A DNA stretch of 58,613 nucleotides, filler included, from an uncultured bacterium (lineage in GTDB: Bacteria; Armatimonadota; Abditibacteriia; Abditibacteriales; Abditibacteriaceae): NCBI GenBank assembly GCA_963843795.1. It is 4 parts of 4 records of this genome, joined end to end, with 100 filler letters (N's around TTAATTAATTAA, not from the genome) between each part and the next. Parts side by side here need not be neighbours in the genome. Positions count along the whole stretch, not along the records: positions 1 to 12,277 come from CAWJLW010000001.1; positions 12,378 to 31,058 come from CAWJLW010000002.1; positions 31,159 to 38,452 come from CAWJLW010000007.1; positions 38,553 to 58,613 come from CAWJLW010000008.1. One strand, 5' to 3'. The notes below the pieces were generated by a model that saw only the letters and a list, made by a program, of their open reading frames with translations, did no database searches and was not told the DNA's origin. Numbering within the stretch: position 1 is the first letter of the stretch; the number at the start of each line of letters is the position of its first letter. The translations under genes were made by a program, and so were the position numbers. This document shows, piece by piece, positions 2 through 50,650 of the stretch.

Positions 2-1201
2 GCGCAGGCCAGTCACATAAGGTCGCGGATCATCGTCGATGTTCTTTTCGCGGTCCAGGTTCATCCACGCGGGCATGACGTAATGCGGCGTCTGGATAAC
101 CCACTCCGCGCCAATCTCGCGAAAATCCTTGAGCACGCCGCCGTAAACTTCTTCTACCTGTTGCGGCGAAAGATAAGCATCGTTGACGAACTCCGAAATG
201 ACGAGGTCGGGGCGCACTGCAAGTACTTGCTCGCGATAATTGCGCGGGCTGCCGGGCGGTTCGTTCAGGTAATTCTGTATAGTGCGTCCACCCCAACCTT
301 GCGTGACCAACTCGATTTTGGCTTTCGGAAAACGCTCCTTCAGGCGAGCCACGAACTGCTGCTGCCACTTCTGCTCCGGCTTCAGGTAGACCGCTTCGGT
401 GACGCTGTCGCCCCATGCCAATATCTTCAAAGGCTCGCCACTGCGCAGCTTGGCCAGAGTCTTGGGCAAGAGCGTTTCCACTGCCGTTGATTGTGGCGAA
501 GCCGCTGCAGGGAACTCGGTCTCGGTAATCGGGAAGATGTGGTTATCGTTCAGCTTGGCGAGGCGACCAAACACCCAAATGTTTGCCAGACGTGTCTCAT
601 CAGCGGCAATCTCTGGAGGATGCGGCACGCCGATTCTCTCCTGACCACTTTTCACGAACACACGCCCGGTGCGTGTGGCGACAACCGAATCGAGACGTCC
701 CACGCCGTGCCTGTAGCTGATGAATACACGGGTGTTCGGGCCGATCTTCTGGTCTGGCAAGCGTCCGATGGTGCCCCACGTGTTGTCGAACTGGTAATCT
801 GTGCCGCGCGTGAAAACTTCGCCACCGGGCACGGCTTTAACCACAACGCTCTGCGTGTCGAGATAATCGAGTGCACTGAGCTCAGGCGCTTGCACGGCGC
901 GCAAAGGTTGGCCCTTGATATAGCCTGGCGCCTTATCATCGAAAAGCGGCAGCGTGTCGTATCGCTCATCCTCCACCTCAACGATGCGGGCGGGTGTGAC
1001 ATCCAGAGTCGTCGGAGTTTGGAGCTTGACCACTGTGTTGCCAACGCGCACCGCACCGCCTTGAACGCGTACCTTCCAGTTGGCCACAATCGAGAACTGT
1101 GGTGACGTTTCCACAGTATTGGCCTCTTTTGCACGGGCGGCAGTTCCGCTTAAAGCAGTCGTGGCCGCGAGCACCGATAGAAGATATGGGAGTTTATGCA
1201 T
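2..1201 (-). CDS. Secreted SGNH/GDSL-family hydrolase (3' end runs off the left edge of the window)
   Basis: Manual translation of the minus strand from ATG at 1201 is open to the window edge: signal peptide MHKLPYLLSVLAATTALSGTAARA, then LKILAWGDSVT (block I GDS), GWGG and EFVND. It is absent from the ORF track because no stop is in the window. Confidence 0.85.
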   Translation of the reverse strand, partial: MHKLPYLLSVLAATTALSGTAARAKEANTVETSPQFSIVANWKVRVQGGAVRVGNTVVKLQTPTTLDVTPARIVEVEDERYDTLPLFDDKAPGYIKGQPLRAVQAPELSALDYLDTQSVVVKAVPGGEVFTRGTDYQFDNTWGTIGRLPDQKIGPNTRVFISYRHGVGRLDSVVATRTGRVFVKSGQERIGVPHPPEIAADETRLANIWVFGRLAKLNDNHIFPITETEFPAAASPQSTAVETLLPKTLAKLRSGEPLKILAWGDSVTEAVYLKPEQKWQQQFVARLKERFPKAKIELVTQGWGGRTIQNYLNEPPGSPRNYREQVLAVRPDLVISEFVNDAYLSPQQVEEVYGGVLKDFREIGAEWVIQTPHYVMPAWMNLDREKNIDDDPRPYVTGLR

Positions 1202-1542
1202 TTTCTTTTCTGAACACCTCATGGTGAACCTCATGGTGAGGTTGATAGCTCGGCAAGTTGTGGCCATCAGTAAACAACAAGCCCCAATTATCTGCACTCG
1301 CAAGGCCGAAGGCAATTCGGGAAATAAGCAGTAAGGAACAGTGTGCCCATAGAATATTTTCCTACCAGCTGGAGACTATTCGCGAAGAACTTGTAACGGG
1401 GCTAAATTGGATTTGATAACCAATCTCATAGAACCCCGAGTTTGAAGGCTTCGGAAATGTGGATTTGATGTTTCATGATAGCGAAACATTCCGCCCAAAT
1501 GTTTCTCCGTCGCGTTTCCCTGACCTGCTATCGTTTTCCGTA

Positions 1543-1560
1543 TGATAACGTCCTTTATCA
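1543..1560. promoter_or_regulatory. Putative tyrosine-recombinase crossover/operator site TGATAA-CGTCCT-TTATCA
   Basis: Inverted 6-bp arms around an asymmetric 6-bp spacer, upstream of the antitoxin-vapC-recombinase operon. The same 14-bp core (ATAAAGGACGTTAT) recurs at 12380-12393. Confidence 0.55.
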
Positions 1561-1692
1561 TTCACGAGAACCATGCTATGATAAAATGAAATCATCCGCC
1601 AAGTCGCACGACAGTGTGGACACGGATTGGGTCATGGGTAGAACTTAGGGACAGAACTTAGGAATAGAACTCAGTAGCAGGAGAACCGCATT

Positions 1693-2037
1693 ATGACATT
1701 GATCATTGACTTCGCTCCCGAAATGGAAACGCGACTCCAGGAAATCGCGGCGCGCCAGGGGCAAGACCCGACCAGCTTTGTCAAAGCTGCCGTTGAGGAA
1801 AAGTTGCAGCGGGCCGCCATGGAGAGCAACGGAACACAGAGCAGTAGCACCAGTGGCACGACCAACGGAAACGGGGCTAACGGAAATGAAGTGGCTCAGA
1901 CGTTGGATCAGATGCTGGCCGGTTTGACGGGCGCCATTCGCAGCCAAGACGGGCGTGGTGGCGGGCGACTTTCCGAAATGAGCGGAGCCGACTTCGGCGA
2001 AGATTTAATGCAGAAGCAAGGGCGAGGCGAGCTGTGA
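1693..2037 (+). CDS. Putative antitoxin (RHH-like N-terminus) of the VapC toxin
   Basis: MTLIIDFAPEMETRLQEIAARQG ribbon-helix-helix-like start; AGGAG RBS; stop overlaps the start of the PIN gene. Confidence 0.7.
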   Translation: MTLIIDFAPEMETRLQEIAARQGQDPTSFVKAAVEEKLQRAAMESNGTQSSSTSGTTNGNGANGNEVAQTLDQMLAGLTGAIRSQDGRGGGRLSEMSGADFGEDLMQKQGRGEL

Positions 2038-2456
2038 CACTGTGCGATACCGGCCCATTGGTCGCGCTGGTCGATTCCGACGACCGGCATCATGCGCGTT
2101 GTCTGGCAGCCTTGCCAAGCTTAACCAGTCCGTTGCTAACGACGTGGCCCTGCCTGACCGAAGCCATGCATTTTTTAGGCAAAGCGCGGGGTTGGGACGC
2201 TCAGTCCGTGCTCTGGCAGTTCGTGCGGCGTGGGGCGTTGCAACTGCATTTTCCAAGTTCCGCTGAAGAGTTGAGTGCCGAAGAATTGCGTATCGAAGCC
2301 CTGATGGGTCAATACCGCGATGCGCCGATGGACTTTGCCGATGCCTCTTTGGTAGCCGCCGCCGAAACGCTCAATCAGCGGCGCATTTTTACGTTGGATC
2401 AACACTTTTACGCGTATCGAATTTATGACCAACACGCTTTTGAAGTCGTTCCCTGA
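2034..2456 (+). CDS. vapC: PIN-domain VapC toxin
   Basis: LCDTGPLVAL...TWPCLTEA...MDFADASLVAAAE...IFTLD: conserved acidic PIN residues. Confidence 0.92.
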   Translation: MTLCDTGPLVALVDSDDRHHARCLAALPSLTSPLLTTWPCLTEAMHFLGKARGWDAQSVLWQFVRRGALQLHFPSSAEELSAEELRIEALMGQYRDAPMDFADASLVAAAETLNQRRIFTLDQHFYAYRIYDQHAFEVVP

Positions 2457-3447: not shown

Positions 3448-3707
3448 GAGTTATTTAAGCTTTGCGATTGAGTAGGCTGCGACTTGCTGTTTGAGGATGT
3501 CGATAATTTGCTCCTCCTTGAATCGACCTTGTTTCATTGCCATTCTCCTTGATGTTATTTTAGCGGAGAATTCTACGCTGAAACGAGATGATTTATCGGT
3601 AGACTGCTGTTGCACTTGATGGGATGAAATTGGGTAGGAGATGACTAAATCGTTGAGTTTAATCTCGCCTTAAAAAACTCGCGGTATCATCAGGTGCCAT
3701 AAACTCT

Positions 3708-6829: not shown

Positions 6830-7072
6830 AATTGATTTTCTTAATGGCTTTGGCGCTGATTTCTCCAGGCCACAAGTCATTCGGTGCGCCGTTGGTGTTG
6901 GTGAAATAACCTTTGCCCAGATGATAAAACACAACTTCGCGGCGTTCTTTCATTGTTAAATTGCTCCTGCAAGTACTTGCGCGCCGATATGTCGTGTCTC
7001 GAAACTTTTTAAAGTTCGTTTACCACGCTGTTAATAATGATTTAGGCACTGTCTCTACAGTCAAGGTGTGTA

Positions 7073-8047: not shown

Positions 8048-8845
8048 ATGAAAACCAAGAATTTAATGAAAACCAAGAATTTAACGCCCCGTGCCCTTCG
8101 CAAGTACTTGCACGGCTTCACCCTCATCGAACTTTTAGTTGTCATCGCTATCATTGCAATCCTCGCGGCGATTTTGTTTCCGGTCTTTGCGCGGGCGCGC
8201 GAAAATGCGCGACGCATTTCGTGTTTGAGCAATTTGAAGCAGATCGGCTTGGGTTTGCAGCAGTATGTGCAGGATTACGATGAGCGTCTGGTGGGCGTGC
8301 GTTACACCAGCACGGGGCCGTATTGGATGGATATTTTGCAGCCGTATCTCAAGAGCGAACAAATTTTTAACTGCCCCTCCAGCGACCTCAAATGGACGGC
8401 GGGCAGTGGCACGGTGAGCTATGCGTATAACGTGATGTATACCAGCGGTGGCACCGCTGGCGATGGCTACGATACCACGCCGCCTTCGGGTTACTTCAAC
8501 ACCGATTGGGGGCTGCACATGGCGCGTATTGAAACGCCCTCAGAAACCGTGCTGTTTGGCGACGGCGGCGGCAGCTACATGGTTTATGCGGCGAGCAAAA
8601 GTTCGGGCACCAGCCAGGCGGTGGCGAATTTGACGCAGCCTTACCCCGCGGGCACCAGTTATCCCAGCATCGGGCGCGTCAGCAGCGCTTCGCAGATATT
8701 TTTGGGACGCCACTTCGAGGGCGCGAATTATGTTTTCGTCGATGGGCACGCCAAATGGCTAAAAATGTCGTCCGCCGCCCAGAAGAATGGCTACGGCGTG
8801 ATGCACGTGTTCACCATTCAAGACGATAAAGATTTGACGCCGTAA
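8048..8845 (+). CDS. Second DUF1559 prepilin-type protein with H-X9-DG motif
   Basis: [41 protein letters not shown]...[17 protein letters not shown]; an 18-bp tandem duplication at the start gives MKTKNL twice. Confidence 0.92.
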
Positions 8846-10090: not shown

Positions 10091-10132
10091 GGCAGAATGC
10101 GCTCTGCAAGTACTTGCAGAGCGCATTCTGCC
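10091..10132. terminator. Perfect 42-bp palindrome/terminator centred on GCAAGTACTTGC
   Basis: GGCAGAATGCGCTCTGCAAGT|ACTTGCAGAGCGCATTCTGCC followed by GTTTTT, 12 bp after the stop at 10079. Confidence 0.75.
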
Positions 10133-18571: not shown

Positions 18572-18866
18572 CGTGTTCTCCGGTGCGAATCAAAACTGTG
18601 TGCTGGACATCGGTCACGAAAATACGCCCGTCACCGTGCTTGCCGGTGTGGGCGTGAGTTTGAATAGCCGCAAGTACTTGCGGCACCAATTCGTCTGGCA
18701 CCACCAGTTCGATTTTGGAATTGATGTCTGGATTGACGTTGCCGCGCGCCGCATTGGTACAACGCACCTCTGAGGTCATCACGCCCGTCACGCCTTCGAT
18801 ACCGTGTAGCGAACTGAGAACGTGATTGAGCATGAACGGCTGAATGATGGCTTTGATTTCTTTCAT
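18561..18866 (-). CDS. P-II family protein (metal-efflux-associated GlnB-like)
   Basis: MKEIKAIIQPF...KIELVV...AHTGKHGDGRIFV...IRTGE; shortened T-loop. Confidence 0.9.
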   Translation of the reverse strand: MKEIKAIIQPFMLNHVLSSLHGIEGVTGVMTSEVRCTNAARGNVNPDINSKIELVVPDELVPQVLAAIQTHAHTGKHGDGRIFVTDVQHTVLIRTGEHDVS

Positions 18867-19948
18867 GATGTTTCTCCTGCGGCGTGCCCATGCCGATGAT
18901 GGATGTCAGGGAAGTGCGGGTGCGAATGCGTTAGCGGCTCGTGAGTATGTTCGTGTGTGTGCGGCTTGGTCGGGTCAACACCCGCCGCGTGCGCGTGCTG
19001 ATGATGCTCGTCGTGAATATGGCGATGCGAGTGTTGCAGCCGCTCGTGATGATGCGCGTGTTCGTGCTTTTCGGTCAGGTGCAGCCAGACACCGATGACC
19101 ATGAGTCCTCCGGCTGCAACAAAAAGCGCCCCGACCGATTCGCGCAACAAGAGAAGTGACACAAGAGCGCCGACAAAAGGCGCGAGGGAAAAATAGGCGC
19201 CGGTGCGCGCCGTGCCGAGATTGCGCAGTGCGAGAACAAAACAGGCCAGACTCAATCCGTAGCCCAAGAAACCCACTACCAGCGCGCCTGCAAGTACTTG
19301 CAGCGGCGGTAGCGACGCGCCCAACGCCAGCGCGATGGCAAGATTGACGCTGCCAGCCACCAGTCCTTTAATCGCGGCGATTTGAAAAGGATCGCTGGAC
19401 GAGACTTTCTGCGTCAGGTTGTTGTCCACGCCCCAGCACAAACACGCTCCGGCCACCAGAAGCGCGCCACTTGAAAATGCCAATCCCGCGCCCGGCTGCC
19501 ACGACAACAGCAATCCGCCCGCGACAATGGCAACCATGCCCAGCGCGATGCGGCGGTCGAAGTTTTCGCGAAAAACAAACCACGCTAGCAGCGCTGTAAA
19601 GACGCCTTCGAGGTTCAACAAAAGCGAGGCTGTCGCCGCTGCGGTACTGTGTAATCCCAACATCAGCAATACCGGACCAAGCGCGCCACCGAAGAACACT
19701 GCACCCGCTAACCAGCCCCATTGCTCGCGCGGCAGCGATGCTTCGCCCGCACCCAAAGTACTTTGTCGCCGCGCCAATCGCACGAGGGATAAGCCGATGC
19801 CCGAACCGAGATAAAGCAATCCGGCCAGCAGCACCGGCGAAACTTCGCCCAGCAGCAACTTGGCGAAGGGAGTACTCGCACCGAAGAGCGCCGCCGCTAT
19901 AAATGCTATTCCTACTCCCGTGGGAAGGGGCGCTTTGATTTCTTTCAT
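18863..19948 (-). CDS. DMT/EamA transporter with His-rich C-terminal tail
   Basis: About 10 TM helices (LFGASTPFAK, ASLLLNLE, WGVDNNLT, LGTARTGAYF) and tail HEHAHHHERLQHSHRHIHDEHHQH...PDIHHRHGH; RBS supports the ATG at 19948. Confidence 0.9.
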   Translation of the reverse strand: MKEIKAPLPTGVGIAFIAAALFGASTPFAKLLLGEVSPVLLAGLLYLGSGIGLSLVRLARRQSTLGAGEASLPREQWGWLAGAVFFGGALGPVLLMLGLHSTAAATASLLLNLEGVFTALLAWFVFRENFDRRIALGMVAIVAGGLLLSWQPGAGLAFSSGALLVAGACLCWGVDNNLTQKVSSSDPFQIAAIKGLVAGSVNLAIALALGASLPPLQVLAGALVVGFLGYGLSLACFVLALRNLGTARTGAYFSLAPFVGALVSLLLLRESVGALFVAAGGLMVIGVWLHLTEKHEHAHHHERLQHSHRHIHDEHHQHAHAAGVDPTKPHTHEHTHEPLTHSHPHFPDIHHRHGHAAGETS

Positions 19949-21388: not shown

Positions 21389-21507
21389 GATAAAAAAACG
21401 TGCTGCCAACTGCGGCGCAAAAGTACGCCTGATTTCAGGCTTACTTCTGCTATGCCGCCACGCTGCAAGTACTTTGTGAGTACTCACAGCGCGACGGCGC
21501 TCGGTCA

Positions 21508-28169: not shown

Positions 28170-29842
28170 GGTGTTTCACCGCCTTGCGGTGCGATGGGAC
28201 TGGTTTCTGTGGGTGTCGCGCCGAGCGGATTAAGGGGCGCGACCGTATTGGGTGGAATGGTGCCTGCGGGCACGGTGCCCGGCGCGGCGGTTCCAGGTGG
28301 AGCGACGGCACCGATGGGATTAGAAATTTCGCCGGTCAGCGAGGCCGGAAGCGTGGCGCCCAGCGCGCCTTCGAGTGCGGCTTCACCGGTGCGCGTGCCA
28401 ACAAGGGCTTGCAGATATTCGGTTTGCACTTGGCGCAAGGTGCGTTGCGCGTCCAGCACTTCGAGATAAGTCGAAGCGCCCTGCGCGTAACCGATTTGAG
28501 TTTTGCGTAACAAATCGAGCGTTTGCGGCACGATGCTGCTGCGATAGCGTTCGACGGTCTGGCGCTGCTGTTGCAATCGAATCAATGCCTGCTCGACTTG
28601 CGTCGCAGCCTGCTGTTGTAAAAGGGAAATCTGCGCTTCCTGCGCGCGCGCTTCGGCTTCCAAAGCGCGGCGTTCGCGCTTGTTGGAGCCGTAATCGAAG
28701 AGGGGAATCACCACGACGGCACGCAGGGCAGTCGAACTGTTGCCACCGAAAACGCTGCCCCGGCGCGCCTGAATTTCGATGTCGGGCCGCCGCTCGCGTG
28801 CAAGTACTTGCACCTGCGCGCGCCGCGCTTCCAAAACCGCCTGTGCGCCCACGATGTCGGGCCGCTGCAAAGCGCCGGGCAACAATTGAGAGCGTAAGCC
28901 GATCAAATCGCTGCCGACTTGCGAGGAAGCGCCGATAGTCGGCGTTTGCGGCGCCAGCGGAGGCGCAGCGAGGACCGGAACTTGTGGTGCGTTGTCGAGC
29001 GGCGGTGTCGCGGGAATGTTTCCCGGCGCGTTGGTCGCGGGAACGCCAGTAGCGGAAATTCCGGTGGTGTCCAAACGCAGTGGGGCGGAACGCAAACGCA
29101 GTAAATCCGCCAGTCCGGTCGCAAGCGGCAAGGCTACACGCAATGGAGTTTCCGGCGCTTGGCCGACAATCTGATTTAAAGCTGCGCGGCGTGCCAGACG
29201 CTCGGCTTGCGCCGTCGTCAAATCGTTTTGCACGCGCAGCAGTTCCAGATCGGCGCGCTGCACTTGCACGGGCGGCACGTCGCCCAGTTCGGCGCGGCGC
29301 GCGGCGGCATCGCGGAACAATTGCGCCACTTCGACCTGCACTTCGCCCAGCGTTTCGGCTTCCTGTGCGGCGAACAGATTGACGACGGCATTTTTTACCC
29401 CTACGACCAGCGAACGCTCGGCCAAAGTACTTTGGGATTCGGCAGCGCGCAGTTGCGCAGCCGCGACATTGCCGCGTGCGCGGCGTTTGCCGAACAAATC
29501 CAGCGGCTGCGACAGAATAATTTCTTCATCGCGCGCCTGGCGATTGCCGATGCCCGGCACGACTTGCAGAACCGGATTGCCCAGCGCGCGCGCTGCACCA
29601 ACCCGTTCGCGCGCGGCTTCAACGGTTTCGCGGGCAATTGGCAACTGCGGGTTACTTGCGATGGCAAGACGAATTAATTCATCCAGCGCGACTTGAGGTT
29701 CGGATGTGACCGGCGCAGCAACTTCGGCTGCGATTACCGGCACGGGCGGCGTATCTTGCGCCCCTGCGCTTTGTGCCACTGCGGGCACGACGAGAAAAAG
29801 ACTAGCCCACAAAACGGGGCTGCAACGAAATAAGTGAGACAA
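28166..29842 (-). CDS. czcC: TolC-family outer-membrane factor
   Basis: Two OEP repeats (LSQPLDLFGKRRAR; IPLFDYG; YAQGASTYLEVLDAQR); GGAGG RBS before TTG at 29842. Confidence 0.9.
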   Translation of the reverse strand: MSHLFRCSPVLWASLFLVVPAVAQSAGAQDTPPVPVIAAEVAAPVTSEPQVALDELIRLAIASNPQLPIARETVEAARERVGAARALGNPVLQVVPGIGNRQARDEEIILSQPLDLFGKRRARGNVAAAQLRAAESQSTLAERSLVVGVKNAVVNLFAAQEAETLGEVQVEVAQLFRDAAARRAELGDVPPVQVQRADLELLRVQNDLTTAQAERLARRAALNQIVGQAPETPLRVALPLATGLADLLRLRSAPLRLDTTGISATGVPATNAPGNIPATPPLDNAPQVPVLAAPPLAPQTPTIGASSQVGSDLIGLRSQLLPGALQRPDIVGAQAVLEARRAQVQVLARERRPDIEIQARRGSVFGGNSSTALRAVVVIPLFDYGSNKRERRALEAEARAQEAQISLLQQQAATQVEQALIRLQQQRQTVERYRSSIVPQTLDLLRKTQIGYAQGASTYLEVLDAQRTLRQVQTEYLQALVGTRTGEAALEGALGATLPASLTGEISNPIGAVAPPGTAAPGTVPAGTIPPNTVAPLNPLGATPTETSPIAPQGGETP

Positions 29843-29951: not shown

Positions 29952-30416
29952 TTAAGCCAAAACGGGAGGAGCGCGAGCGGGAAGGGTGGAACGAAGAAAA
30001 ACGGCGGCGGGCACAACAGGCGGTGGCCCGGCCAATCCGTGCAGACAACCGGACAGCATCACCGTCTGCTGTGTTGTCGGAATGGTAGCGACCATCGCCG
30101 TGAGCGTTACCACCGGGTGTTCAACGGAATGATGCGAGGAGTTGAGAACGGCGGTTTCTGAAAGCAGATCGCAACCATCTGGCGGCGATGGTTGTGTGGG
30201 CGCACAAAGTTGACAGGCACCAAGGCCGTGCGGGCACGCTGCAAGTACTTGCAGCGTGACTTGGCTGGAGCGCGTTAAACCGCCCAGATGAGCCGCGCAA
30301 TTATCGAGCGAATGCGTCAGTAGAACACAGAGGAGGAACACCGCCGCACCCAAAAAACTGCGGCGCGATGTGTACTGTAAAAAAGGAGAAAACTGAATCT
30401 GTGCTTTCATGAGCAA
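29952..30416 (-). CDS. DUF2946/CutF-like leader protein with C-terminal RAPP motif
   Basis: N-terminal hydrophobic segment, CPHGLGACQLC, ends HGLAGPP...LPARAPPVLA directly upstream of czcC. Confidence 0.72.
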   Translation of the reverse strand: MLMKAQIQFSPFLQYTSRRSFLGAAVFLLCVLLTHSLDNCAAHLGGLTRSSQVTLQVLAACPHGLGACQLCAPTQPSPPDGCDLLSETAVLNSSHHSVEHPVVTLTAMVATIPTTQQTVMLSGCLHGLAGPPPVVPAAVFLRSTLPARAPPVLA

Positions 30417-31627: not shown

Positions 31628-31687
31628 GGTGCCTCTTGCGTCCCGCTTTGACCCTTGCCAAGTACTTGCAAAGGGCTTTATCGTCTT

Positions 31688-31719
31688 AAACCGCGCTGCA
31701 AGTACTTGCAGCGCGGTTT
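31688..31719. repeat. Perfect 32-bp palindrome centred on GCAAGTACTTGC between cas4 and cas1
   Basis: AAACCGCGCTGCAAGT|ACTTGCAGCGCGGTTT; a one-mismatch core copy lies at about 31658. Confidence 0.9.
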
Positions 31720-31727
31720 TAAGGACA

Positions 31728-32262: not shown

Positions 32263-34566
32263 AGTTCTCCACCTCACGCTGCAAGCGTAACCCGTACTTC
32301 AAATCGTAATAATCATCGTTGACCAGCCAAACTTCTTCGCTATCCTCGCCAACTATAATTTGGTGTTTTTCGATAGCGCCGATTCGCTGTGCCATTTCCA
32401 GTTGATAAGCATAGATTTGGACGCCGTGTTTCAACTGCCATTTGCGAAAATCCATACGATTTTTGATTAGCTCAGTAGAACTTTCGCCCGCCAAGAAATT
32501 ATCGACTTTCACGCCGACAAACACGGTTTGCTGTGGTGCGATATCGCGGCTTTTCCAATCGTGGGTTTGTTCGTCATCTTCGTTTTCCAGTTCGGCGTTT
32601 TGAACGATAAGCCAATTATTGACGAAGCTGTTTTCCAGTTTTCGCGCGTTTTCGCGTGCGTTGTGGTCGGAGTTTCTGAGGTCGGGTAAAGGCAGCTTAC
32701 CATTTCGGAAAAATCGCGCGGCGAATATTCGCCTTCCGGCAGCCATTGGTTCGATTGGCGAAGAACATCGGTCAGTTCCCATTTGCCGCCTGCAAAAGCA
32801 CCATACGGCGCGGGATACCATTCGTCTGCGGCTTCTTCGCCGTTGGAATCGGCAACACAACATATAAATCGCCCATGAAATTTTGCGTCCGTCACCACGT
32901 TTTTCAAAGCGTGACAAACGACCGGCGCGTTGCGTCAAGCGGTCAATCGGGCATAAATCGGAGAGCATATTATCGGCGCTGATATTAATGCTCAGTTCAC
33001 CGATTTGCGTCAGAATCGCAACGCCGTTTGCTTAGTCATTTTCCCAAGCTTTTCGACCCATTAGCTTTTCAAGCTTTGTCTCGATGGCGGCTTTATCCGG
33101 CTCACAAAAGCGAGAATGGTAAAGCACGATATTTTCCTCATCGAATTCGCAATCGGCAAACCATTGTCGATAGGCTTGAGCGCGCTCGACGGTGTTGGCA
33201 TAAATAATCAATGGCGCGTCATCGGCGGTAAGTTCGCAAAGCAAGTCGGAAAATCGTCCGGCGTTTGTACGCGGCCTTTCCGATGAATACGACAGCGTTT
33301 GCGATCAATGTCGGAATTGTCTTCGTAAATTTTTTCTGGTTGTGAAGCCCGAAAGCACGTAAAGCTCTCGCGCTGATTCGGGAATCGTCGCGCTCATCAT
33401 CAAAACTGACACTTCAAGTACCTTGCAGTGCGCGAAGAAAACGATCATGTTGCGCTGGGTGAAATCGTCGTAGAAGTCGGCTTCATCAATTACTACACAC
33501 GAGTGTGCCAAACCCCAGAAAATGCCATGATGATCTTCGCGCGCACCGGTCAGCGCGATACACAAATGGTCAATCGTCGTGACTGTAACCGGCGTTTCCA
33601 ACAAGCGTGCCAGTAGCATTTCTTTGATGAAAAGATTGTCGTCGAATTGCTTATCTTTGTCAGCTTTCTCTTGGCAGCTTCTTCGTAAAAACTCGCCGTC
33701 GAATGATACAAGCCGCGCTGACTCATAGTTTTCGGCGATATTGATCGAAAGTGCGTTGGAAGTGAAGCGCGTCGGCATCGCAATCACCAAACGGTCGGCG
33801 CGATGTCTTCGATTTGATGCTGTGCCCACAACAGAGCAGCGTCGGTTTTTCCGGCTCCAGTCGGCGCACGTAGAATCGCAAACGGTTCATCCCACAATTG
33901 CGTGATGATTTCTTGCACACCATGCTTTTGCGAAAGTGGAAATCACAGTTCCATCGGTTTCAACGCTGGTAACGTATCGCCGTTGGCTTTGGCGCTGGCG
34001 CGGCCATCGGCGAGTTGCAGCCACGCGCGCGGGCCGTCGTATTCATAACGCTTGGCCAGTACTTGCGCGAAGCTTTGGTTGTCATCGGCGCGAAATTCAC
34101 TGGATGTAGCTTTAAAGTCTTTCCAAAAAGCGGCGTGCGCTGGGCCGGCCACTCAGTGATTCGTCGTGCAAGCGTTTGCGATGTCGTTCCGAAAGTTTAC
34201 GATGATGTGCCGCCACCGCTGCCCAACACAACGGCGGTAATTCGACGCGCGTTTCTCCATCATCGCCAGCGACGCAATTTCGTGGCGAATTCCAGCGTGC
34301 ATCAAACGCCGGCCACAATTTTTGCCGGTGAGTTGCAATTCTCGGTAATCGCCGCGACAAGCGATTGCCAGCGCGGATGCTATTTGCCTGCATCGTGCCA
34401 GAGCGCGGCTTCATCGAGCAACTGCTCCAAGTCGCGTCCGGTGCGCTGCAAGTACTTGCACGCCGCAAACGGGCGCGCGGCTACCAAATTGGCGGCTTCA
34501 TCGTGCACATCTTGCGTGTGCTGCGCGAGCGTAAAGCCATCGGATTTGAATCTCCAGAATTTCCAT
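32246..34566 (-). pseudogene. cas3: Cas3 HD-nuclease/helicase, multiple frameshifts
   Basis: Fragments: TLAQHTQDV...LWHDAGK (HD), LQLADGRASA, IAMPTRFTSNAL, VTTIDH, VVIDEADFYD, MSAT, YANTVERAQ, YHSRF, SDLCPIDRLTQRAGR. Confidence 0.9.
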
Positions 34567-37918: not shown

Positions 37919-38110
37919 AGCAAACTCCTCGTAGCTTTTAGTAGCGGCATTATACACGAAAATCATTTGTTACAATATCGTAGGATTCCAGTTATGATTT
38001 AGTACTGCAGGCGACGGCATTGAAACACGATCTTGTAGCAGGAAGTAACGTATTTCATCAGTTTTCTAATCGAACCGCGCCTGCTGCTCTTATTTTTGAC
38101 AAAGGTGGTG

Positions 38111-39798: not shown

Positions 39799-39920
39799 AT
39801 GAGGCGCTGCAAGTACCTGCCACGACAAGCGGCGATATTATACGTCATTGACGCACCGCAAAACATTCGCAATGCGACCGCAATGCGCCAATGACAGAGT
39901 TTTTGCGGTTAAATGGAGCC

Positions 39921-42900
39921 ATGAAATCGCACACCGAGCAAAAGTTTGAAGACGAGATCGTCGAATATCTCAGCGCGCACGACTGGCATCTGGGCCACAA
40001 CACGGGCTATTCGCGCGAACTGGCGTTGTATCTTCCCGATGTGGAAGCGTGGCTGCAAGCAAACCCAGCCCGATCAATGGGCCAAAATCGAGAAAACGCA
40101 GGGCGCAAACACCCTGCAAGTACTTGCCAGTGCGTCTGGCGCAATCGCTCGATCAGAACGGCCCGCTGCACGTTTTGCGCAACGGCTTCAAACACATCAA
40201 CGCGCAGTTCGCGATGTGCCAGTGGCAGCCGGAAAACACTCTCAATCCGACCACGCTCGAACGCTTTGCTCAGGTGCGCTGTACCGTGATGCGTCAGGTG
40301 CGTTATTCGCTGCACAACGAAAATAGCATCGACTTGGTGTTTTTCGTCAACGGCATTCCGACCGCAACGCTGGAACTCAAAACCGATTTCACCCAGACCG
40401 TGCAGGATGCCATCCGGCAATATAAGCACGACCGCCCGCCGCGCGACCCCAAAGCCAACGCCGATGAGCCGTTGCTCGCTTTCAACCGGCGCGCTCTGGT
40501 GCATTTCGCCACCAGCAGCCACGAAGTCCACATGACGACGCGGCTCGAAGGCCCGAAAACCCGCTTTCTGCCCTTCAATCAGGGCCACGATGAAGGCGCG
40601 GGCAATCCGCCCAACCCCGATGGCTACGCGACTTCGTATTTGTGGGAGCAAGTACTTGCGCGCGACACCTGGCTCGATATTCTGCGCCGCTTCGCGCACA
40701 GCGAAACCAAAACTTCGACCGATGCTCAGGGCAAAACCACGACGCGCCAAAGCCTGATTTTTCCGCGCTACCACCAGTGGCAAGCCGTCACGCAGTCTAG
40801 TCGAAGCCGCGCGCAAGGAAGGCGCGGGCCACAATTATCTGATTCAACATTCGGCGGGTTCGGGCAAAAGCAACTCGATCGCCTGGCTCGCGCACCGTCT
40901 GGCCTCCTTGCACGATGCCCAAGGCGCGGCGCGCGTTTTCGATTCGGTGATCGTGGTCACAGATCGCAACGTGCTCGATAGCCAGTTGCAAGAAACCATT
41001 TATCAGTTCGATCACAAAAGCGGCGTCGTGGTCGGCATCAGCGAAAAAGGCGGCTCCAAGTCGTCGCAGTTGGCCACAGCACTGGCCAACAACACGCCGA
41101 TCATCATCGTCACGCTGCAAACTTTCCCCTTTGTGCTCGAAGCCATCAAGCAACAAAGCTCGCTCAAAGCGCGCCGTTTCGCCGTCATCGCCGACGAAGC
41201 CCACTCCTCACAAAGCGGAGCCGCTGCCAGTGGATTGGCGCAAGTTCTTGCCAGCGAGACCAACGAAGACGGCGTGCCGATCGGTGTCGAAGATGTGATG
41301 ACGGCCAACATGGAAGACCGCGCCAAACATCACAACGTGTCGTATTTCGCTTTCACCGCGACGCCCAAGCCGCGCACGCTGGAACGCTTTGGCCGCGTGC
41401 CCGACCCGACACAGCCACCTTCGAAAACCAACGCGCCCGCAGCGTTTCACGTCTATTCGATGCGTCAGGCCATCGAAGAAGAATTCATTCTGGATGTGCT
41501 GGAAAACTTCACGCCCTACAAAATGGCTTTCAGATTGGTTCACGACGGGCAGGATTACGACGATGATGAAGTCGATCAATCGCGCGCGCTCAAATCTCTC
41601 ATGCGCTGGGTGCGTTTGCACCCGCACAACATCAGCCAGAAAGTGCAAATCATCGTCGAGCACTTTCGCAGCAACGTGGCCGCGCTTCTCGATGGCCGCG
41701 CCAAAGCGATGGTCGTCACCGATTCGCGCCAGGCTGCCGTGCGCTACAAGCTGGCCATCGACAAATACATCAAAGAGCAGGGCTATAATCTGGGCACACT
41801 GGTGGCGTTTTCGGGCGAAGTCAACGATAGCCAAAGTGGGCCGCAAGCGTTTTCGGAAAGTAACATGAACGCGAACTTGAAAGGCCGCGATATTCGCACC
41901 GCCTTCAACAGCGATGAGTTTCAAATCTTGCTGGTCGCCAACAAGTTTCAAACCGGCTTCGATCAACCGTTGCTGTGCGCGATGTATGTCGATAAACGGC
42001 TCGATGGCATCACCGCCGTGCAAACTCTGTCGCGCCTCAATCGCATCTATCCCGGCAAAGAAACCACCTATGTTCTGGATTTCGTCAACGAGCCGCAAGA
42101 CATTCTCGACGCCTTTTTGCCCTATTACAAAACCGCGCAACTGAGCGGCGTCAGCGACCCCAACCAAATCCACGACACTCCAAGGCAAGCTCGATCTGTC
42201 GCAAATCTACACCGACGAGGAAGTCGAACAGTTCGCCCAGGCATTCTACACGCCCCGCACCCGACAAGCCGCACTGCAAGCCGCTATCTCGCCCGCTGTC
42301 AATCGCTTCCGCACGCGCTGGAAAACCGCCCAAGACGCGGAGGACAAAAAAACTCTCGACGAACTGATACTCTTCCGCAAAGATTTGGCGACCTTTGTGC
42401 GGATGTATGATTTTCTTTCGCAGATCATCAACTACGGCGATACCGCGCTCGAAAGTCGCAACATCTTTTATCGCCACCTGCTGCCCCAGCTCAAAACCGA
42501 GAATCTGGACGAAGCCATCGACTTATCCAAAGTGCAGCTCAGCCACTACAAGCTTAAAGACAGCGGACAGCGCAATCTGGGTTTGAACGGCTCCAGCGAC
42601 GAAGCGCTGCTCGATCCGGCAACGGCTGCCGGTTCGGGCATGGCCCAAGACCCGGCCAAAGCACACCTCAAAGAGATCATCGCGCGCATGAACGACGTGT
42701 TCGAAGGCGAAGTCTCCGAAGCCGACGCGCTCACCTTTGCCCTTGGCGTGCGGGATAAGATGCTGGAAAACACGGATTTGCAACGGCAGGCCCGCCACAA
42801 TACCAAAGAACAATTCGAGCTGGGCGACTTCCGCACCGCGCTCGAAGATGCGGTGATTGACAGCTTGGACAATTATCAGGATAAAGCCGGTCAGGTGCTA

Positions 42901-42990: not shown

Positions 42991-43138
42991 AAACGTTTTA
43001 ACAACTACAGATTTCGTGGCAATAATTAGCGGGAAGTAATTTTTCCGACCAGTCGCGCAATGGGTAATCGCCTCTGCGTGGGCACCCGTTGAGAATCATC
43101 TACCGACCCCGCAAGGGGGGGGGCTCAAACCCGAAAAA

Positions 43139-43449: not shown

Positions 43450-43479
43450 AACGCCGCTGCAAGTACTTGCAGCGGCGTT
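43450..43479. repeat. Perfect 30-bp palindrome centred on GCAAGTACTTGC (REP-like)
   Basis: AACGCCGCTGCAAGT|ACTTGCAGCGGCGTT; a near-identical inverted copy is at 50190-50224. Confidence 0.9.
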
Positions 43480-43900: not shown

Positions 43901-44279
43901 AGCTGCAAGTTACTTGCAAGGCCAAAATCGGCGATTAATAGCAAAGCCTGTGACCGCTGCACAGCATGAACCGACAAAACAAGTGACCCCACGAAGGAAT
44001 GAGCTTATGACCCGACGTTTAAAATTTTCACCCGAACTGGAAAAGCGGCTGCAAGTTACTTGCAGCGCGCAGTAGCACCAGTTTGGCGCGGCACGAATGC
44101 GCGCGGACTGGCTTTGGCTCAGTGTGGTGTTTGCGTGCGTGTGGTGTTTGGCAGTCGTGAGGCGCATTATTTGAAACGGCGCTGCAAGTCCAACGACTTG
44201 TCGTACTGGCAGGACGAAAAACTGGCCTGATTGTCTGCTATGTTTGTAGTCTGTTGTATTATTGATTACAATTATATGC

Positions 44280-45180: not shown

Positions 45181-45914
45181 ATGAGCGATGAAAACGCGAG
45201 CGATGAAGATTGGGTTTCCGTGGCAGAGGCGGCGGCGCTAATGAAGGTATCGCCGCGCACAGTGCGACGACGTTGCGAAGCGGGCGAAATTATCGCCGAA
45301 CTCGAAGCCAGCGAAAACGGGACGGGCGGGCTTGCGTGGCGCATTGATGCGACCAGCATCGCAGTCGTAGGAAATGTAGAAAATGACCGCGCGGCCAAGC
45401 GAACGGACACCAATCAAGCACAAAATCAGACCGCGCGGACAAAAACGATGGCCGCGCGGACAGGCGCGCGGCCAAGCGGACGGACAGAGGCAGACGGTCA
45501 AATGTGGGCGGTTCTGGTGGCAGAAAAAGACGCGCGCATTGACGACTTGCGGGAGCAATTGGAAGCGGCGCGCGAGAAGCAGCAGCGCGTTTGCAGATTG
45601 AAGCGGCCAACCGCGCTTTATCGGAAACCAATGCTTCACTACGTGAGGCGCTCAAAATGTCGCATCGCGCCTTGAATGAAGGCGCGGCCAAACCCGTGGA
45701 ATTCGACGGGAATAGCGATGTGCAAGTACTTGCAGGGGAGCAAAGCGGCGCGCCGACAGTGGGCGAATTGCGGGCGCAACGTAACGCAAACGATACAATG
45801 ATGCCCGACGCAGCGAACGCGCGAAATATGGAAAGTCCGGCGCGACAGCGACCGGTCAGCAAAGATGAAAAAGGTTTGCGCGGCTTTTTGCTTCGATTGT
45901 TGAAATCAGCATGA
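45181..45914 (+). CDS. Excisionase-like HTH plus coiled-coil protein (frameshift near 45590)
   Basis: WVSVAEAAALMKVSPRTVRRRC...WRI; EKDARIDDLREQL continues in ORF 45591..45914, ending KGLRGFLLRLLK. Confidence 0.7.
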
Positions 45915-46797: not shown

Positions 46798-49503
46798 ATG
46801 AATTTTGACGCATCACAGCCAGTTTCGCAACCGAAGGCCCACACCAACGGCCACGCCACAGCCACCAAAATACCGCCGCAGGTCCAATTGGTAACATCGC
46901 GCGACCTATTAGAAGCGCACGGCAACAGCCAGCAGAATGGTAAAGCGCAAGTACTTGCAGCACCGGCAACCACAACCCAAAACGGCCACGTTACGGCGCA
47001 AGATCGCGCCGAAAGTGAACCCTACTTCAATGCTGATGCGATGCGAACCGGCACACTGAAGCCAGATCACCGCGAAAAGCTCAAAGCTGAATCCGGCCTC
47101 AGCGATGAAGCCATTAATGCGCGTGGTTATTGGACGTGCGAAGAAGGTGGCAAAGCTACCCTAAAGTACTTGGGCTTGTCCGCCGATTTGGGCAGATGTC
47201 TCATCATACCGCTATGGAACCATCGCGGCGAACGTGCCGGACACATCGCGCGGCTCGACAATCCCATCAAAGGCAAGCCCAAATATCGCTTTCCCAAAGG
47301 TGCAACCAATGTTTTGGATGTGAACCCACTGGTGCGCGGCTTATTGGACGACCCGAACGTTCCGCTTCTCGTCACCGAAGGAGCCAAGACCGCCGATTCT
47401 GCCAACTCGCGCGGTCTGTGCTGCATCAATCTCAACGGCGTGTATGGGTTTCGTGGTACCAACGACAAAGGCGGTATCGCAACGCTGGCCGCGCTCAACG
47501 AAATAGTTTTCACCGGCAAAAAGCCCAGCGGCGAAAAATTTGGGCGCGTGGTGTATGTGACTTTCGATTCCGATGTGACCGTGAATCCCAAAGTCGAAAA
47601 GGCGTTGCGCAACTTTTCCGCAGTGTCTGCCAGTCGCGGCGCGATTGTCAAAATCGTGACTTTTGAAGCGGCGGCCAACGGCGACAAAACCGGTATGGAC
47701 GAATTTTTCGCTCGCGATGGCGGCACCGTTGAAAAGTTGTTTTCGATGGCGCGCGACTTAGAAAGCGAAAGTGAACGCAAGCGCCGCCAAGCCAGCGATA
47801 AGGATAAAAATCCCTACACCATCGAAGGTGGTTGCATCGTGATGCAAACCGAGCGCGCATTTGGCGCTGGAACGGTAATAGTTGCCGATTTCGCGGCGCA
47901 TATCACTGAGGAGATCATCAGTGAAAATGGCGAGCGGATGTATTGCATCGAAGGAAAAACACGCTATGGCGATGCGATCAAAGTCGATATTGAAGCCAAG
48001 ACCTTTGATGACGATTACACACTCAAACGACAAATGGGCGCGGCGGCGGGCGCGCGTGCCGCCATTAGAGCAGGCGCGGCCAAACATATTGGCCCTGCGA
48101 TCAAACTGCTGAGTACAAGCGAGCGGCGCATTACTAAGCGCTTTGATCGCACCGGTTGGCACGATGAAAAATTCTTGATACCAGGTCGCATCCGTGATGG
48201 GCAGCAAATCGTTCTACCCGACGACTTGCCCTATTTCATCGACCCCGCAGCGCAATTGGGCTTGGGACTGGAAGCACTGGAAGCACTTATCGAAGCACAG
48301 GAAATCCAGGCGACGGCACCTTTGCTGGCGGCCTACCTTCAAGCACCATTTGCGCCCAGAGCGGCCTTCAAGAAGCGATACGCAGTTGCTGCAATAGGAC
48401 GAACAGGCACATTCAAAACCACTGTTAACCAACTGCTTATGTCCATCTATGGGCCTAAATTCGCAGATGATGAATATCTGACGCGTTGGGGCGAAGGTGC
48501 AACACGCAATGCCATTCTAAAGCAGGGAACCTACTGCCACGATATGCCCTCGATTACGGACAATTTTAAACCCAATATCGGACGGGCAGGCGATTTTGCG
48601 GCGCTGGTGAACAGCATTGTCGAAGGCGGCGAAAAGAAGCGGCTCGATAGCAACTCCGACTTAAAAGCGTCCAAGTCTATCCGCACCGTGCCAATCTTTA
48701 CCGGTGAGGATATTCCCGATGATGACCCGGCTACATTAGCACGCGTGTTAATTATCCCATTTCCAGTTTTCGGGCAGCGGATGAACCGCAACCTATCCAA
48801 AGCGCAAGTAAGCGCGCACCATTTATGCGCGGTTGGTGGCGCTTGGCTGGATTGGCTGGAAAGCGATGAAGGCGCGATTATCGCCAACCGAGCAGGACAG
48901 ATGTTTGGGGACCGGCGCGACGCTTGGGCGCAAGTTCTCTACAATCACAACAACGACACACAAAATGCCTTTCGCATCGCTTCAAACTTGGCCACCAACG
49001 AGCTGACGTGGTGGGCCATGCGCCACTGCCCAGTACTTGCCCAAATTGCTGAGAAGTTCAGTGATGCGCACGCGAAAGGCTTACTGGAAATTTCTAAGGC
49101 GATGGCAGCCAATACTGCCGAATCGTTGGAAGCGTCGCGCTACCTATCTGCAATTCGTGAATTGCTCGCCAGTGGAAAATGTATTCTCCTCAACCGCCAC
49201 GCCTCAATCTCGGACAGTGGAAAAAATGGCAGCGTGATCGGATATGAGGACGACAACGGAGCCTACATTCTCCCCGGCGTAGCACGCGCAGAAATTGAAA
49301 AGAATTTGGGAAAGGATAGGTTGGGCGGTGTTACTGATCGTACCATTTACGATCAGCTAAAACAGTTGGATGCAATTCAAAGTAGTGAGGAAGGTCGAAA
49401 AACACAAAAGATTCGCATCCCCTGTGGGCGAACCCAAAGAGTTCTTCATCTGAAGGAATTGGCGCTGAACGAAAACAAATTGCATGGAGACAACGATGAG
49501 TAA
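46798..49503 (+). CDS. DUF3854 (Toprim-like) primase fused to a helicase-like domain; phage-satellite/plasmid replication protein
   Basis: ESGLSDE.I.ARG, KPKYRFPKG, LLVTEGAKTAD, VYVTFDSDV, KTGMDEF; C-terminal GRTGTFKT P-loop; GGAGG RBS before ATG 46798. Confidence 0.85.
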   Translation: MNFDASQPVSQPKAHTNGHATATKIPPQVQLVTSRDLLEAHGNSQQNGKAQVLAAPATTTQNGHVTAQDRAESEPYFNADAMRTGTLKPDHREKLKAESGLSDEAINARGYWTCEEGGKATLKYLGLSADLGRCLIIPLWNHRGERAGHIARLDNPIKGKPKYRFPKGATNVLDVNPLVRGLLDDPNVPLLVTEGAKTADSANSRGLCCINLNGVYGFRGTNDKGGIATLAALNEIVFTGKKPSGEKFGRVVYVTFDSDVTVNPKVEKALRNFSAVSASRGAIVKIVTFEAAANGDKTGMDEFFARDGGTVEKLFSMARDLESESERKRRQASDKDKNPYTIEGGCIVMQTERAFGAGTVIVADFAAHITEEIISENGERMYCIEGKTRYGDAIKVDIEAKTFDDDYTLKRQMGAAAGARAAIRAGAAKHIGPAIKLLSTSERRITKRFDRTGWHDEKFLIPGRIRDGQQIVLPDDLPYFIDPAAQLGLGLEALEALIEAQEIQATAPLLAAYLQAPFAPRAAFKKRYAVAAIGRTGTFKTTVNQLLMSIYGPKFADDEYLTRWGEGATRNAILKQGTYCHDMPSITDNFKPNIGRAGDFAALVNSIVEGGEKKRLDSNSDLKASKSIRTVPIFTGEDIPDDDPATLARVLIIPFPVFGQRMNRNLSKAQVSAHHLCAVGGAWLDWLESDEGAIIANRAGQMFGDRRDAWAQVLYNHNNDTQNAFRIASNLATNELTWWAMRHCPVLAQIAEKFSDAHAKGLLEISKAMAANTAESLEASRYLSAIRELLASGKCILLNRHASISDSGKNGSVIGYEDDNGAYILPGVARAEIEKNLGKDRLGGVTDRTIYDQLKQLDAIQSSEEGRKTQKIRIPCGRTQRVLHLKELALNENKLHGDNDE

Positions 49504-50164
49504 TCAAGATTCGATTCTCCCACCTCTGCCGCTCTTTGTTTTCCACGATGAGCAGCGCATTGTTCCCGGCGTTGTTCCCGCTTGTTCCCGGAAGCGAAAT
49601 TACACTCCGGGAACAAGCGGGAACAAAATGGCCAATGATACTCACGTTTTTTCCGAAAAAATACAAAATGTTCCCGCTGTTCCCGCAAAAAAATGCATAC
49701 AAGCTACGTTACGAGAAAACTGCGAAAAAGCCTTTATTTGTTCTGAATATAGCAAAGAAGAAGAAATTTCCGACCATTCCTTTTTTTTTGCGGGAACAGC
49801 GGGAACAGAGCACAAAACCGCACCCGCAAGTACTTGCAGCACCCTGAAACGCATTGTTCTCCCATCTCCTACCCTCGCCCAGTGGGAAGGCATGAACGCC
49901 CGCACGTATTCCGCCGCTGCTCTGCTGCGACAGCGACTTGTGGCGTCGGGCTTCGATCTGCGCGTATCGCGTGAGGCGGGCGCGCTGCGCTTCGACGAGC
50001 CGCGCCTGCTCATTGAATACCAGAGCATCGCGCCCGACGATTGGAACGCGATTTTTAAATATCGCACCGAGCTTTTCCACCAGCTTGGCCCGCCCACGCC
50101 GCACATTGCAGAGTTTGACGCGGGCGCCGCCTACACCGCCGCGCCTTCAAACGCATCCGCATAA
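49496..50164 (+). CDS. Hypothetical protein reading through the iteron cluster
   Basis: Start overlaps the primase stop; VPAVPA repeats derive from the iterons; the C-terminus resembles small primase-associated domains. Confidence 0.45.
   Translation: MSNQDSILPPLPLFVFHDEQRIVPGVVPACSRKRNYTPGTSGNKMANDTHVFSEKIQNVPAVPAKKCIQATLRENCEKAFICSEYSKEEEISDHSFFFAGTAGTEHKTAPASTCSTLKRIVLPSPTLAQWEGMNARTYSAAALLRQRLVASGFDLRVSREAGALRFDEPRLLIEYQSIAPDDWNAIFKYRTELFHQLGPPTPHIAEFDAGAAYTAAPSNASA
49561..49807. promoter_or_regulatory. Putative P4-like replication origin: nine TGTTCCCG octamers in both orientations
   Basis: TGTTCCCG at 49561, 49573, 49583, 49669, 49678; CGGGAACA at 49608, 49618, 49791, 49800; AT-rich spacers. 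Confidence 0.7.
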
Positions 50165-50255
50165 TTTCCCGTCACAAGACAATCTGAATTGGCCAACGCC
50201 GCTGCGAGTACTTGCAGCGGCGTTTTGCGTTTTTCAGGACGAGATCACAGGACAA

Positions 50256-50510
50256 ATGATGAAACCCAACTTTGCAACCTACGCCCGCACCCAGCACAGC
50301 AACCCAACGGACAGCAGCCCCGCCGACCGCGCCCAACGCACAGCGCTCGACAAATCCCAGCTCGCCGACGAGCTGGCCAGCACACGCGAGGCGCTCATCA
50401 ATCAACTCGAAACCGACTGCGACTTTGCGCGCAGGACAACAATCCTCGACGACGATCAAATAATCGCGGCGATTACGATTGTCAAAGCGCGCATCGCCGC
50501 GCGCGGTTGA
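50256..50510 (+). CDS. Small hypothetical protein
   Basis: ATG after AGGA; helical ~84-aa product. Confidence 0.45.
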   Translation: MMKPNFATYARTQHSNPTDSSPADRAQRTALDKSQLADELASTREALINQLETDCDFARRTTILDDDQIIAAITIVKARIAARG

Positions 50511-50600
50511 TGAAGCGTGAAGCCAGACTCGAAGCCCAGGACGAGGTGCACCAGAGCAGCCAGCAACCGGCAGCGCGCCCGCCAGCCACGCACAATACAT

Positions 50601-50650
50601 AGTTTGCACAAAGGGCGCTGCAAGTACTTGCAGCGCCCTTTGTGCAAACT
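50601..50650. repeat. Perfect 50-bp palindrome centred on GCAAGTACTTGC
   Basis: AGTTTGCACAAAGGGCGCTGCAAGT|ACTTGCAGCGCCCTTTGTGCAAACT. Confidence 0.93.

Follow-up and report, generated by a model that had tools for sequence, protein, structure and literature searches.

A highly iterated 12-bp palindrome with phased arms and species dialects in the Abditibacteriaceae, a possible self-DNA tag

Copies of the palindrome in the window

The DNA considered here, the window, is a stretch of 58,613 nt joined from four (C1, C2, C7 and C8) of the 11 contigs of a 4.30-Mb assembly (GCA_963843795.1) of a soil bacterium of the Abditibacteriaceae, and the element under study is the 12-bp palindrome GCAAGTACTTGC, hereafter the word. 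All 18 exact copies that had been listed in the initial annotation have been found, on all four contigs (4 on C1, 5 on C2, 2 on C7 and 7 on C8), together with five copies bearing one mismatch. None of 100 dinucleotide shuffles of the window reaches these 23 matches with at most one mismatch (shuffle mean 0.07), and a search of the window against Rfam has given no match.

On C1, the copy at 219..230 lies inside an SGNH/GDSL-like open reading frame (ORF; 2-1315, minus strand), that at 6969..6980 is intergenic, and that at 8100..8111 is read as K-Y-L in a DUF1559 prepilin-like gene. The fourth (10106-10117) is the tip of a 19-bp hairpin predicted at 10091..10132 (-38 kcal/mol, z -9.6), which has a T tail, is terminator-like and follows a phosphoesterase gene. 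On the metal-resistance contig C2 (12378-31058), four copies are read as Q-V-L-A, namely in a small minus-strand ORF (18561-18866; copy at 18670..18681), an EamA/DMT gene (19290..19301), an HlyD/CzcB-like gene (27634..27645, hairpin not significant, z -1.85) and an outer-membrane efflux (CzcC-like) gene (28800..28811), and a fifth at 30241..30252 is probably intergenic. C7 holds one copy at the apex of a predicted hairpin (31698-31709 within 31683..31726) and one in a fragmented CRISPR-cas region where the frame is uncertain (34448..34459). On C8, two copies (40116..40127 and 40648..40659) fall into a type I HsdR ORF (40049-40981, plus strand), an intergenic one (43459..43470) has an extended palindrome, and two are read as Q-V-L-A in a small ORF of a primase-bearing element (45722..45733) and in a DUF3854 primase-like gene (46947..46958). 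The copy at 49826..49837 belongs to an unannotated ORF or a spacer, and the last one (50620-50631) tops a perfect hairpin of 24 bp predicted at 50600..50651 (-44 kcal/mol, z -10.6). The following 8 kb (50651..58613) are free of copies and hold the ParA, ParB, RepA and insertion sequence genes of a plasmid-type replicon.

Six variants had also been listed as one-off copies. Those at 31658..31669, 39809..39820 (the commonest variant class, 127 in the genome) and 50204..50215 indeed carry one mismatch, and those at 43905..43917 and 44051..44063 represent a 13-bp form with a central insertion, but the one at 21465..21485 has two mismatches. Its right half is that of the dialect of a same-genus genome described below, and it is directly followed by GAGTACTC, the core of another genus. 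Two further one-mismatch copies, at 34055..34066 and 41240..41251, were absent from that list. C2 carries more words of other dialects (7 AAGTACTTTG, 2 GAGTACTC and 2 AGTACGGTCG in 18.7 kb), and these therefore suggest a passage of this contig through related species. In 31159-38452 and 38553-43000 the CRISPR-cas genes (Cas4, Cas7-like) are fragmented and the type I restriction system is split, maybe owing to assembly errors.

Abundance in the genome

Genome-wide, 2,567 exact copies have been counted, one per 1,675 bp and on all 11 contigs, against an expectation of 0.08 under an order-4 model with the word masked, together with 506 one-mismatch copies. Such an extreme genome-wide excess of a 9-12 bp word is a mark of the DNA uptake sequences (DUS) and uptake signal sequences (USS), and the count supports the proposal of the initial annotation that a genome-wide word of the kind of the highly iterated palindrome HIP1 or of uptake sequences is present. 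On the 3.6-Mb contig the density is flat (47-83 per 100 kb) except at both ends. Of the 13-bp form, in which a T or an A is added at the centre, there are 66 copies, 53 of them intergenic, and other internal duplications of the word occur 0-3 times each.

A metagenome scan for paired copies has returned 57 loci. Among these, 16 contigs of one related set, ~70% identical to this genome where aligned, bear 97 exact copies in 220 kb and no 13-bp form, and two short contigs at 83% identity also bear the word. In orthologous genes of this set the AGTACT core is common to 8 of 15 sites, 5 of them identical. As independent metagenome contigs (67-83% identity) bear the same word, partly at orthologous positions, it is not an assembly artefact. 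In public reads, four runs contain pieces of this strain at >=99%, none of which spans a copy, and no RNA data set was among the matches listed. Frameshifts have been found in 15 of 173 orthologues checked, which weakens gene calls and leaves word counts unaffected. A scan of GTDB for two copies within 30 bp has yielded 17 loci with 2-3 copies each and no other word-rich representative.

In the literature covered, the word is not described: no paper contains the exact 12-mer, the three 10-mer cores do not occur in the papers listed for them, and Abditibacteria go unmentioned in the papers listed, where subscription papers and bioRxiv supplements, in which a k-mer table could hold the word, fall outside that coverage. 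Established uptake sequences are those of two proteobacterial families; for HIP1, to our knowledge, no reader has become known in three decades.

Placement in genes, spacers and hairpins

Gene positions come from a home-made gene caller (3,528 genes, 86% coding), which misses some genes. The earlier impression that most copies lie inside genes holds for the window, where ~11 of 18 are coding (8 in ORFs with Pfam matches and 3 more by the gene caller), but not for the genome, where 1,757 copies (~68%) are intergenic, 799 genic and 11 on gene edges. The constraint acts at the DNA level, as had been proposed: of 944 QVL tripeptides, 561 are encoded by the motif codons, where codon usage would predict 3.6, and the KYL and AST frames behave in the same way. 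Coding copies are distributed over the three frames as 501, 164 and 134, and the word even alters the proteome, in which QVLA occurs 573 times against 37 for the median of its permutations. Coding copies occupy variable protein stretches (identity at the site 0.2-0.6, overall 0.6-0.67). Among 127 aligned coding sites, 92 have no nearby gap and 35 have one, against a background of ~11%, so that most arose without insertions or deletions.

Intergenic copies lie at a median of 28 bp past a stop codon, and many form the tip of terminator-like hairpins, whose stems vary in sequence and covary. The word is borne by 196 of 243 strong hairpins in convergent spacers, and a long stem together with a U tract is found at 63% of 296 convergent copies. 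Copies are present in 1,414 of 2,516 spacers, exactly one in 1,270 of them and nearly independently of spacer length; 51% of divergent spacers carry one as well. The ribosomal protein operon holds 12 copies in 21 kb, mostly without stems. Termination is a secondary role of the word.

Phased arms around the word

The element is longer than the 12 bp originally assigned to it, since phased arms extend on both sides. AA/TT steps peak at ~8, 19, 29 and 40 bp from each word edge, with a period of 10.5 bp, and fade beyond 50-60 bp. The phasing is alike in coding and non-coding copies, and the second peak is kept in copies without the first tract (24% against 10% in the trough), whereas the AA/TT autocorrelation of the genome itself is below 0.01. 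In this genome and in the family member G009, GC content has minima at distances of 16, 26, 36-37 and 47 bp from the GTAC dyad; the first three agree in the same-genus genome G001 and, on one side, in G006, and the phase relative to the dyad is common to this genome, G001 and G009. Compared with shuffled nulls, the arms exceed on both sides in G009, G007 and G016 and clearly on one side in G006, and are marginal in G001 and the metagenome set. Symmetric, phased arms as seen in strong gyrase sites (~130 bp) are therewith present. The DNA around the word is likely bendable, and the phasing therefore points to a reader that would bend or wrap double-stranded DNA.

Dialects across the family

Contrary to what the initial annotation had supposed, the lineage does not share the exact 12-mer: at most 3 copies occur in each of 60 relatives and none in the same-genus genome. 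Instead, dialects are found across the family. Judged by counts over whole genomes and by sampled stretches, 10 of the 27 family genomes are word-bearing, with four palindromic dialects around AGTACT and two non-palindromic ones, at densities of 0.6-1.2 per kb. G001 uses CAAAGTACTTTG (2,725 AAGTACTT against 48 for a control); G009, G015 and G019 use TCGAGTACTCGA and G012 the looser CGAGTACTCG, with AGTACT counts of 2,813-4,733. The non-palindromic words are AAGTACGGTCGAA in G006 and CAGCCACG in G007, G016 and G018 (1,328-1,773 per strand, controls 140-170); in G007, 390 of 435 words are coding. Orthologues compared between G001 and this genome have the core in common at 3 of 8 sites, with flanks of G001's own. 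GTAC is part of the word in 7 of the 10 word-bearing genomes and absent from CAGCCACG. An ungapped alignment of GCAGCCAC with GCAAGTAC matches at 5 of 8 bases, and the words may therefore share an origin.

In 17 of the 27 family genomes no word has been detected with three whole-genome patterns and samples of 6-107 kb, where other words are possible. Many of them strongly avoid AGTACT (1-126 copies in genera g2 and g5), extremely so together with GTAC in G005, G008, G011, G022, G026 and others, which have 1-5 AGTACT sites in 4-6 Mb. With six dialects, palindromic as well as one-way forms and word-less close relatives, the gene of the reader should be traceable by comparison, as the one that tracks the word in its presence or its sequence.

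Spacing, strand effects and foreign DNA

Below 1 kb, pairs of copies reach a density of 0.5-0.7 of the random value, and at larger distances one of 1.0; this exclusion persists on randomising within the same gene (mean distance 1,429, randomised 1,313, standard deviation 29). Genes below 2 kb have a coding density of 0.35 per kb with no flanking copy and of 0.07-0.12 with copies on both flanks; above 2 kb the difference is small (0.28 and 0.22). With one flanking copy, the near and far halves of the gene hold only 80 and 99 copies. Half-sites and the 13-bp form occur preferentially in the gaps between full copies, and sites with one perfect side are commoner than independent decay predicts.

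In 420 kb of G007, pairs at 60-750 bp comprise 72 in the same and 139 in opposite orientation, where permuted orientations give a mean of 102 same-orientation pairs (standard deviation 7, p<=0.0002); six control 7-mers show no such same-strand avoidance. The effect recurs in G016 (15 same, 32 opposite, p=0.008), which is of the same clade. In G006, 224 of 326 words (~70%) form tight inverted pairs, 112 in number and all one way round. Both strands are used in genes and spacers, and no replication polarity has been detected in three genomes (206:208, 75:81 and 163:163, against weak local GC skew). A one-way word may thus be needed on each strand, which palindromes and inverted pairs would supply at one place.

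The word is scarce in foreign DNA, long copy-free stretches being compositionally atypical or plasmid-type. The longest ones in this genome span 26-33 kb, and two of the four are clearly atypical in composition; one, with 63% GC, is a 33-kb island with a secretion ATPase (C6:3590136-3623414). Three contigs of mobile elements (phage or satellite) from the lineage, all of them selected because they hold 2 copies, bear 17, 10 and 19 copies in 12.0, 7.5 and 10.7 kb (1.3-1.8 per kb) and encode primase, helicase or tape-measure proteins. Viral scans have given no clear lytic phage of this host. In practical terms, the word can sort contigs and phages by host species.

A possible self-DNA tag

Tentatively, and short of even confidence, we favour from this analysis that the word could be a species-specific self-DNA tag for uptake or homologous recombination, of the DUS/USS or HIP1 type. 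The observed basis comprises the abundance, the even spacing, the rewriting of tolerant protein positions, the scarcity in foreign DNA, the dialects, the phased arms and the competence genes. A DNA-bending receptor would read the word when DNA enters or is processed for homologous recombination. The unit read would be a one-way word, roughly AAGTACTTGC or its complement, and two of these would overlap on AGTACT to form the palindrome, which would tag both strands at one site; overlapping dyad pairs have been described for the DUS of S. muelleri (PMC3630211). The ~1-kb spacing might arise because a second same-strand copy within ~1 kb adds little. The word would have spread by biased uptake or recombination, and cheap intergenic copies would later have been used as terminator hairpin tips.

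Several findings argue for uptake or recombination. Density and dialects match those of Neisseriaceae DUS, and the spacing matches that of 1 kb in Haemophilus USS (PMC3630211, PMC7811141); the inverted pairs of G006 resemble DUS in terminators, and the G006 word and the Hin-USS agree in 8 of 9 bases. Variable protein stretches host the coding copies, most of which arose with no indel, long copy-free stretches are atypical or plasmid-type, phage or satellite contigs of the lineage are rich in the word, and the A/T tracts at one and two helical turns from the core resemble USS flanks (PMC12616744). A competence gene set (ComEC, DprA, ComEA, PilB/PilT-type ATPases and a pilin cluster) is present. 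Finally, methylated HIP1 aids transformation, as reported for Synechococcus (10.1101/2024.09.10.611283), and most words contain GTAC, the probable target of an orphan methyltransferase described below.

The DUS of Neisseriaceae and the USS of Pasteurellaceae (PMC3630211, PMC12616744, PMC7811141, PMC1939737) show, as found here, thousands of copies at ~1 per kb with family-level dialects, permissive coding positions, inverted terminator pairs, no replication polarity, A/T-rich flanks and competence genes. Dialects among relatives, inverted pairs in terminators and scarcity in foreign DNA are thus common to both. Unlike DUS and USS, the words belong to another phylum, four of the six dialects are palindromic, many family members have no detectable word, the arms extend further and are symmetric, strand-specific spacing occurs in one clade, and a receptor has not been found. 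The word behaves like DUS/USS and HIP1, yet by the tests made it belongs to neither. With the strand-specific spacing and the phased arms, two new constraints are available which can be checked on DUS, USS and HIP1.

Other results weigh against a self-DNA tag. USS uptake has been reported as orientation-independent (PMC1939737), whereas spacing in the CAGCCACG clade is strand-specific; single words of G006 show no strand effect (14 same, 15 opposite), and half-sites of the window's genome run the opposite way (30 same, 16 opposite). The arms reach 4-5 turns on both sides, beyond the two tracts described for USS. ComEC occurs in 30 of the 31 class genomes, irrespective of whether a word is present, and competence genes do not separate the two groups. 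The type IV pilus cluster (L273, C6:383001-403000) comprises pilB, pilT, pilC, pilD, four prepilin-like genes, a PilX-like gene and a gene for a 1,048-aa protein; pilC and pilD are frameshifted in this assembly, likely by assembly error, given the frameshifts in 15 of 173 orthologues, although decay is possible, and the neighbouring ftsK is split as well. No receptor has emerged either from 45 prepilin-like matches picked by regular expression, which include no basic mature pilin domain, or from a ComP_DUS search of five genomes, which was blank, as was its control. A quick tree had suggested fast evolution of ComEC in word-bearing lines; this has been dropped, as pairwise identity is 41-57% throughout.

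Alternative readings

A mismatch-repair strand signal after Elhai's HIP model appears unlikely. An orphan methyltransferase would mark the parental strand at the word, a nickase would cut the new strand, and biased repair or selection would fill each strand to ~1 site per kb. As saturation at about one site per 1,000 nt, on each strand by itself, follows from the model (PMC4390886), spacing alone cannot separate uptake from repair; the 1-kb exclusion, the same-strand-only avoidance in G007 and G016 and the copies within the ribosomal protein operon itself fit such saturation. An orphan methyltransferase, which had been suggested as a co-distributed partner, is indeed present. It is a beta-class enzyme of 256 aa with M.RsrI as its closest solved relative and 77% identity to a protein named from Abditibacterium utsteinense, and it is found in 22 of 31 class genomes, 9 of the 10 word-bearing ones among them (G016 has no match). 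GTAC is its probable target, judged from a correlation among related genomes: word-less carriers deplete GTAC (0-0.4 of expected), whereas G010, G021 and G023, which lack the enzyme, keep it at 0.70-0.91; G016 and G002 depart from this pattern. As members of one clade are not independent of each other, all gene correlations given here rest on few events. A link of the enzyme to LomA of Leptospira is wrong, as LomA methylates CTAG.

The first Asp of the MutL endonuclease motif has a catalytic role, and it is replaced by N or C in 21 of 21 class genomes examined (C6:899299-901179 in the present assembly; loci L489-L508). This would suit a repair signal, but the change is class-wide and independent of words. 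MutH, the nickase of the Dam/MutH strand signal, has been found in none of five genomes searched (the control is positive in E. coli). Further against repair, word-less relatives with the same methyltransferase are nearly devoid of GTAC, G016 bears a word with no methyltransferase match, and CAGCCACG is without GTAC. Moreover, neither the 50-bp phased arms nor the high density in phage DNA are predicted.

The likeness to cyanobacterial HIP1 and alternative HIPs (PMC4390886, PMC5861425, 10.1101/2024.09.10.611283, PMC13756078) lies in a highly iterated palindrome in and between genes at ~1 per kb and possibly in a conserved orphan methyltransferase with the core as its probable target. Unlike HIP1, the word has 12 bp rather than 8, changes between species rather than being phylum-wide, includes non-palindromic forms and is mostly intergenic, and no C5 methyltransferase has been found in this genome. 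The HIP1 sequence GCGATCGC is another word in another phylum, and CGATCG stands here at 0.2 of expected.

We also doubt that the word is primarily a site of chromosome architecture, at which a specific protein, or gyrase with an adaptor, would wrap or bend ~100-130 bp at the dyad once per gene-sized interval. The 10.5-bp AA/TT peaks on both sides, coding copies included and far above genome periodicity, the agreement of the GC minima between this genome and G009 and in part with G001 and G006, and the uniform coverage of the chromosome speak for it. Likewise, the E. coli gyrase motif is reported as symmetric over 130 bp with a period of 10.75 (PMC6379681), dyad-symmetric sites of 100-130 bp with helically phased arms being known for gyrase (PMC6379681, PMC12324340, PMC13284261), and the word fits all three cleavage preferences given in PMC12324340 (-4G/+8C, -2A/+6T, +1G/+4C; chance 1 in 64 for a palindrome). 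However, the words of G001 and G009 break -4G and that of G009 also -2A, and known gyrase motifs are degenerate, in contrast to the strict base consensus and species dialects found here. A single GyrA/ParC-family gene is present in each of 29 genomes with a match, and thus no separate topoisomerase IV has been found; the DNA-gate region of GyrA is nearly invariant in 21 genomes and does not vary with dialect. A histone fold has been found in none of five genomes, and same-strand-only spacing and the 17 family genomes without a detectable word fit poorly.

It is quite improbable that a helicase-nuclease which replaced AddAB reads the word as a Chi-like stop or loading signal in double-strand break repair. 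Chi sites are polar with replication, and no such polarity is seen here (206 vs 208). An AddA/AddB-like pair is present in 10 of 10 word-less g2 genomes, while an AddA-like protein is found in 0 of 3 word-bearing g2 genomes, and the cognate RecBCD or AddAB in none of the 10 word-bearing genomes. For a reader starting at random breaks, the two orientations would have to be supplied separately, phage DNA would be the better protected, and the one-way reading suggested for the CAGCCACG clade resembles Chi (PMC5101192). On the other hand, seven word-less family genomes are also without an AddA match, the g2 contrast amounts to one clade, NurA is absent from g1 and g2, words are mostly palindromic, and a single-strand reader leaves the phased arms unexplained. 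In a bolder reading, which we hold to be rather doubtful, the Abditibacteriaceae that have lost AddAB would possess a new sequence-directed genome-maintenance machine, which would wrap ~100 bp at the species word, act along a single strand in one direction and require a site per strand every 1-2 kb, with a palindromic/one-way switch in the family; it would explain HIP1-like words in other phyla.

That the word is mainly an intrinsic terminator tip or RNA element is very improbable and, as a primary role, largely refuted: the convergent-spacer hairpins and covarying stems described above agree with it, but divergent spacers bear the word too, terminator-like features are seen in no more than 10% of divergent copies and 1% of 300 coding ones, the ribosomal operon copies are mostly stemless, and the words of G007 are coding in 390 of 435 cases with both strands used. 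Hardly credible is a spread as repetitive extragenic palindromic (REP) repeats by a REP-associated tyrosine transposase (RAYT), despite one RAYT-like gene (L251, C6:751700-752520) and gaps near coding copies at 2.5 times background, as this gene is flanked by its own inverted GTAG-type repeats (core in 18 copies in the genome), no conserved 20-40 bp unit with a GTAG or CGTC foot beside the gene is formed by the word, its flanks vary without constraint, and at most coding copies the sequence is colinear with that of orthologues.

Further occurrences of the word

A group of viral contigs with 38-43% GC (L361, L405, L342 and L368) has almost no similarity to this genome and carries a 14-bp form, mostly GTGCAAGTACTTGCAC or near, at ~0.35 per kb. 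On L053 and L061, contigs of 43-44% GC with no similarity to this genome, 37-bp tandem repeats contain the 12-mer. In Segatella, Prevotella and Paraprevotella (L002, L003, L005, L006, L009, L011, L012, L014), two copies stand 10 bp apart within a span of 34 bp, and these pairs probably represent one small element.

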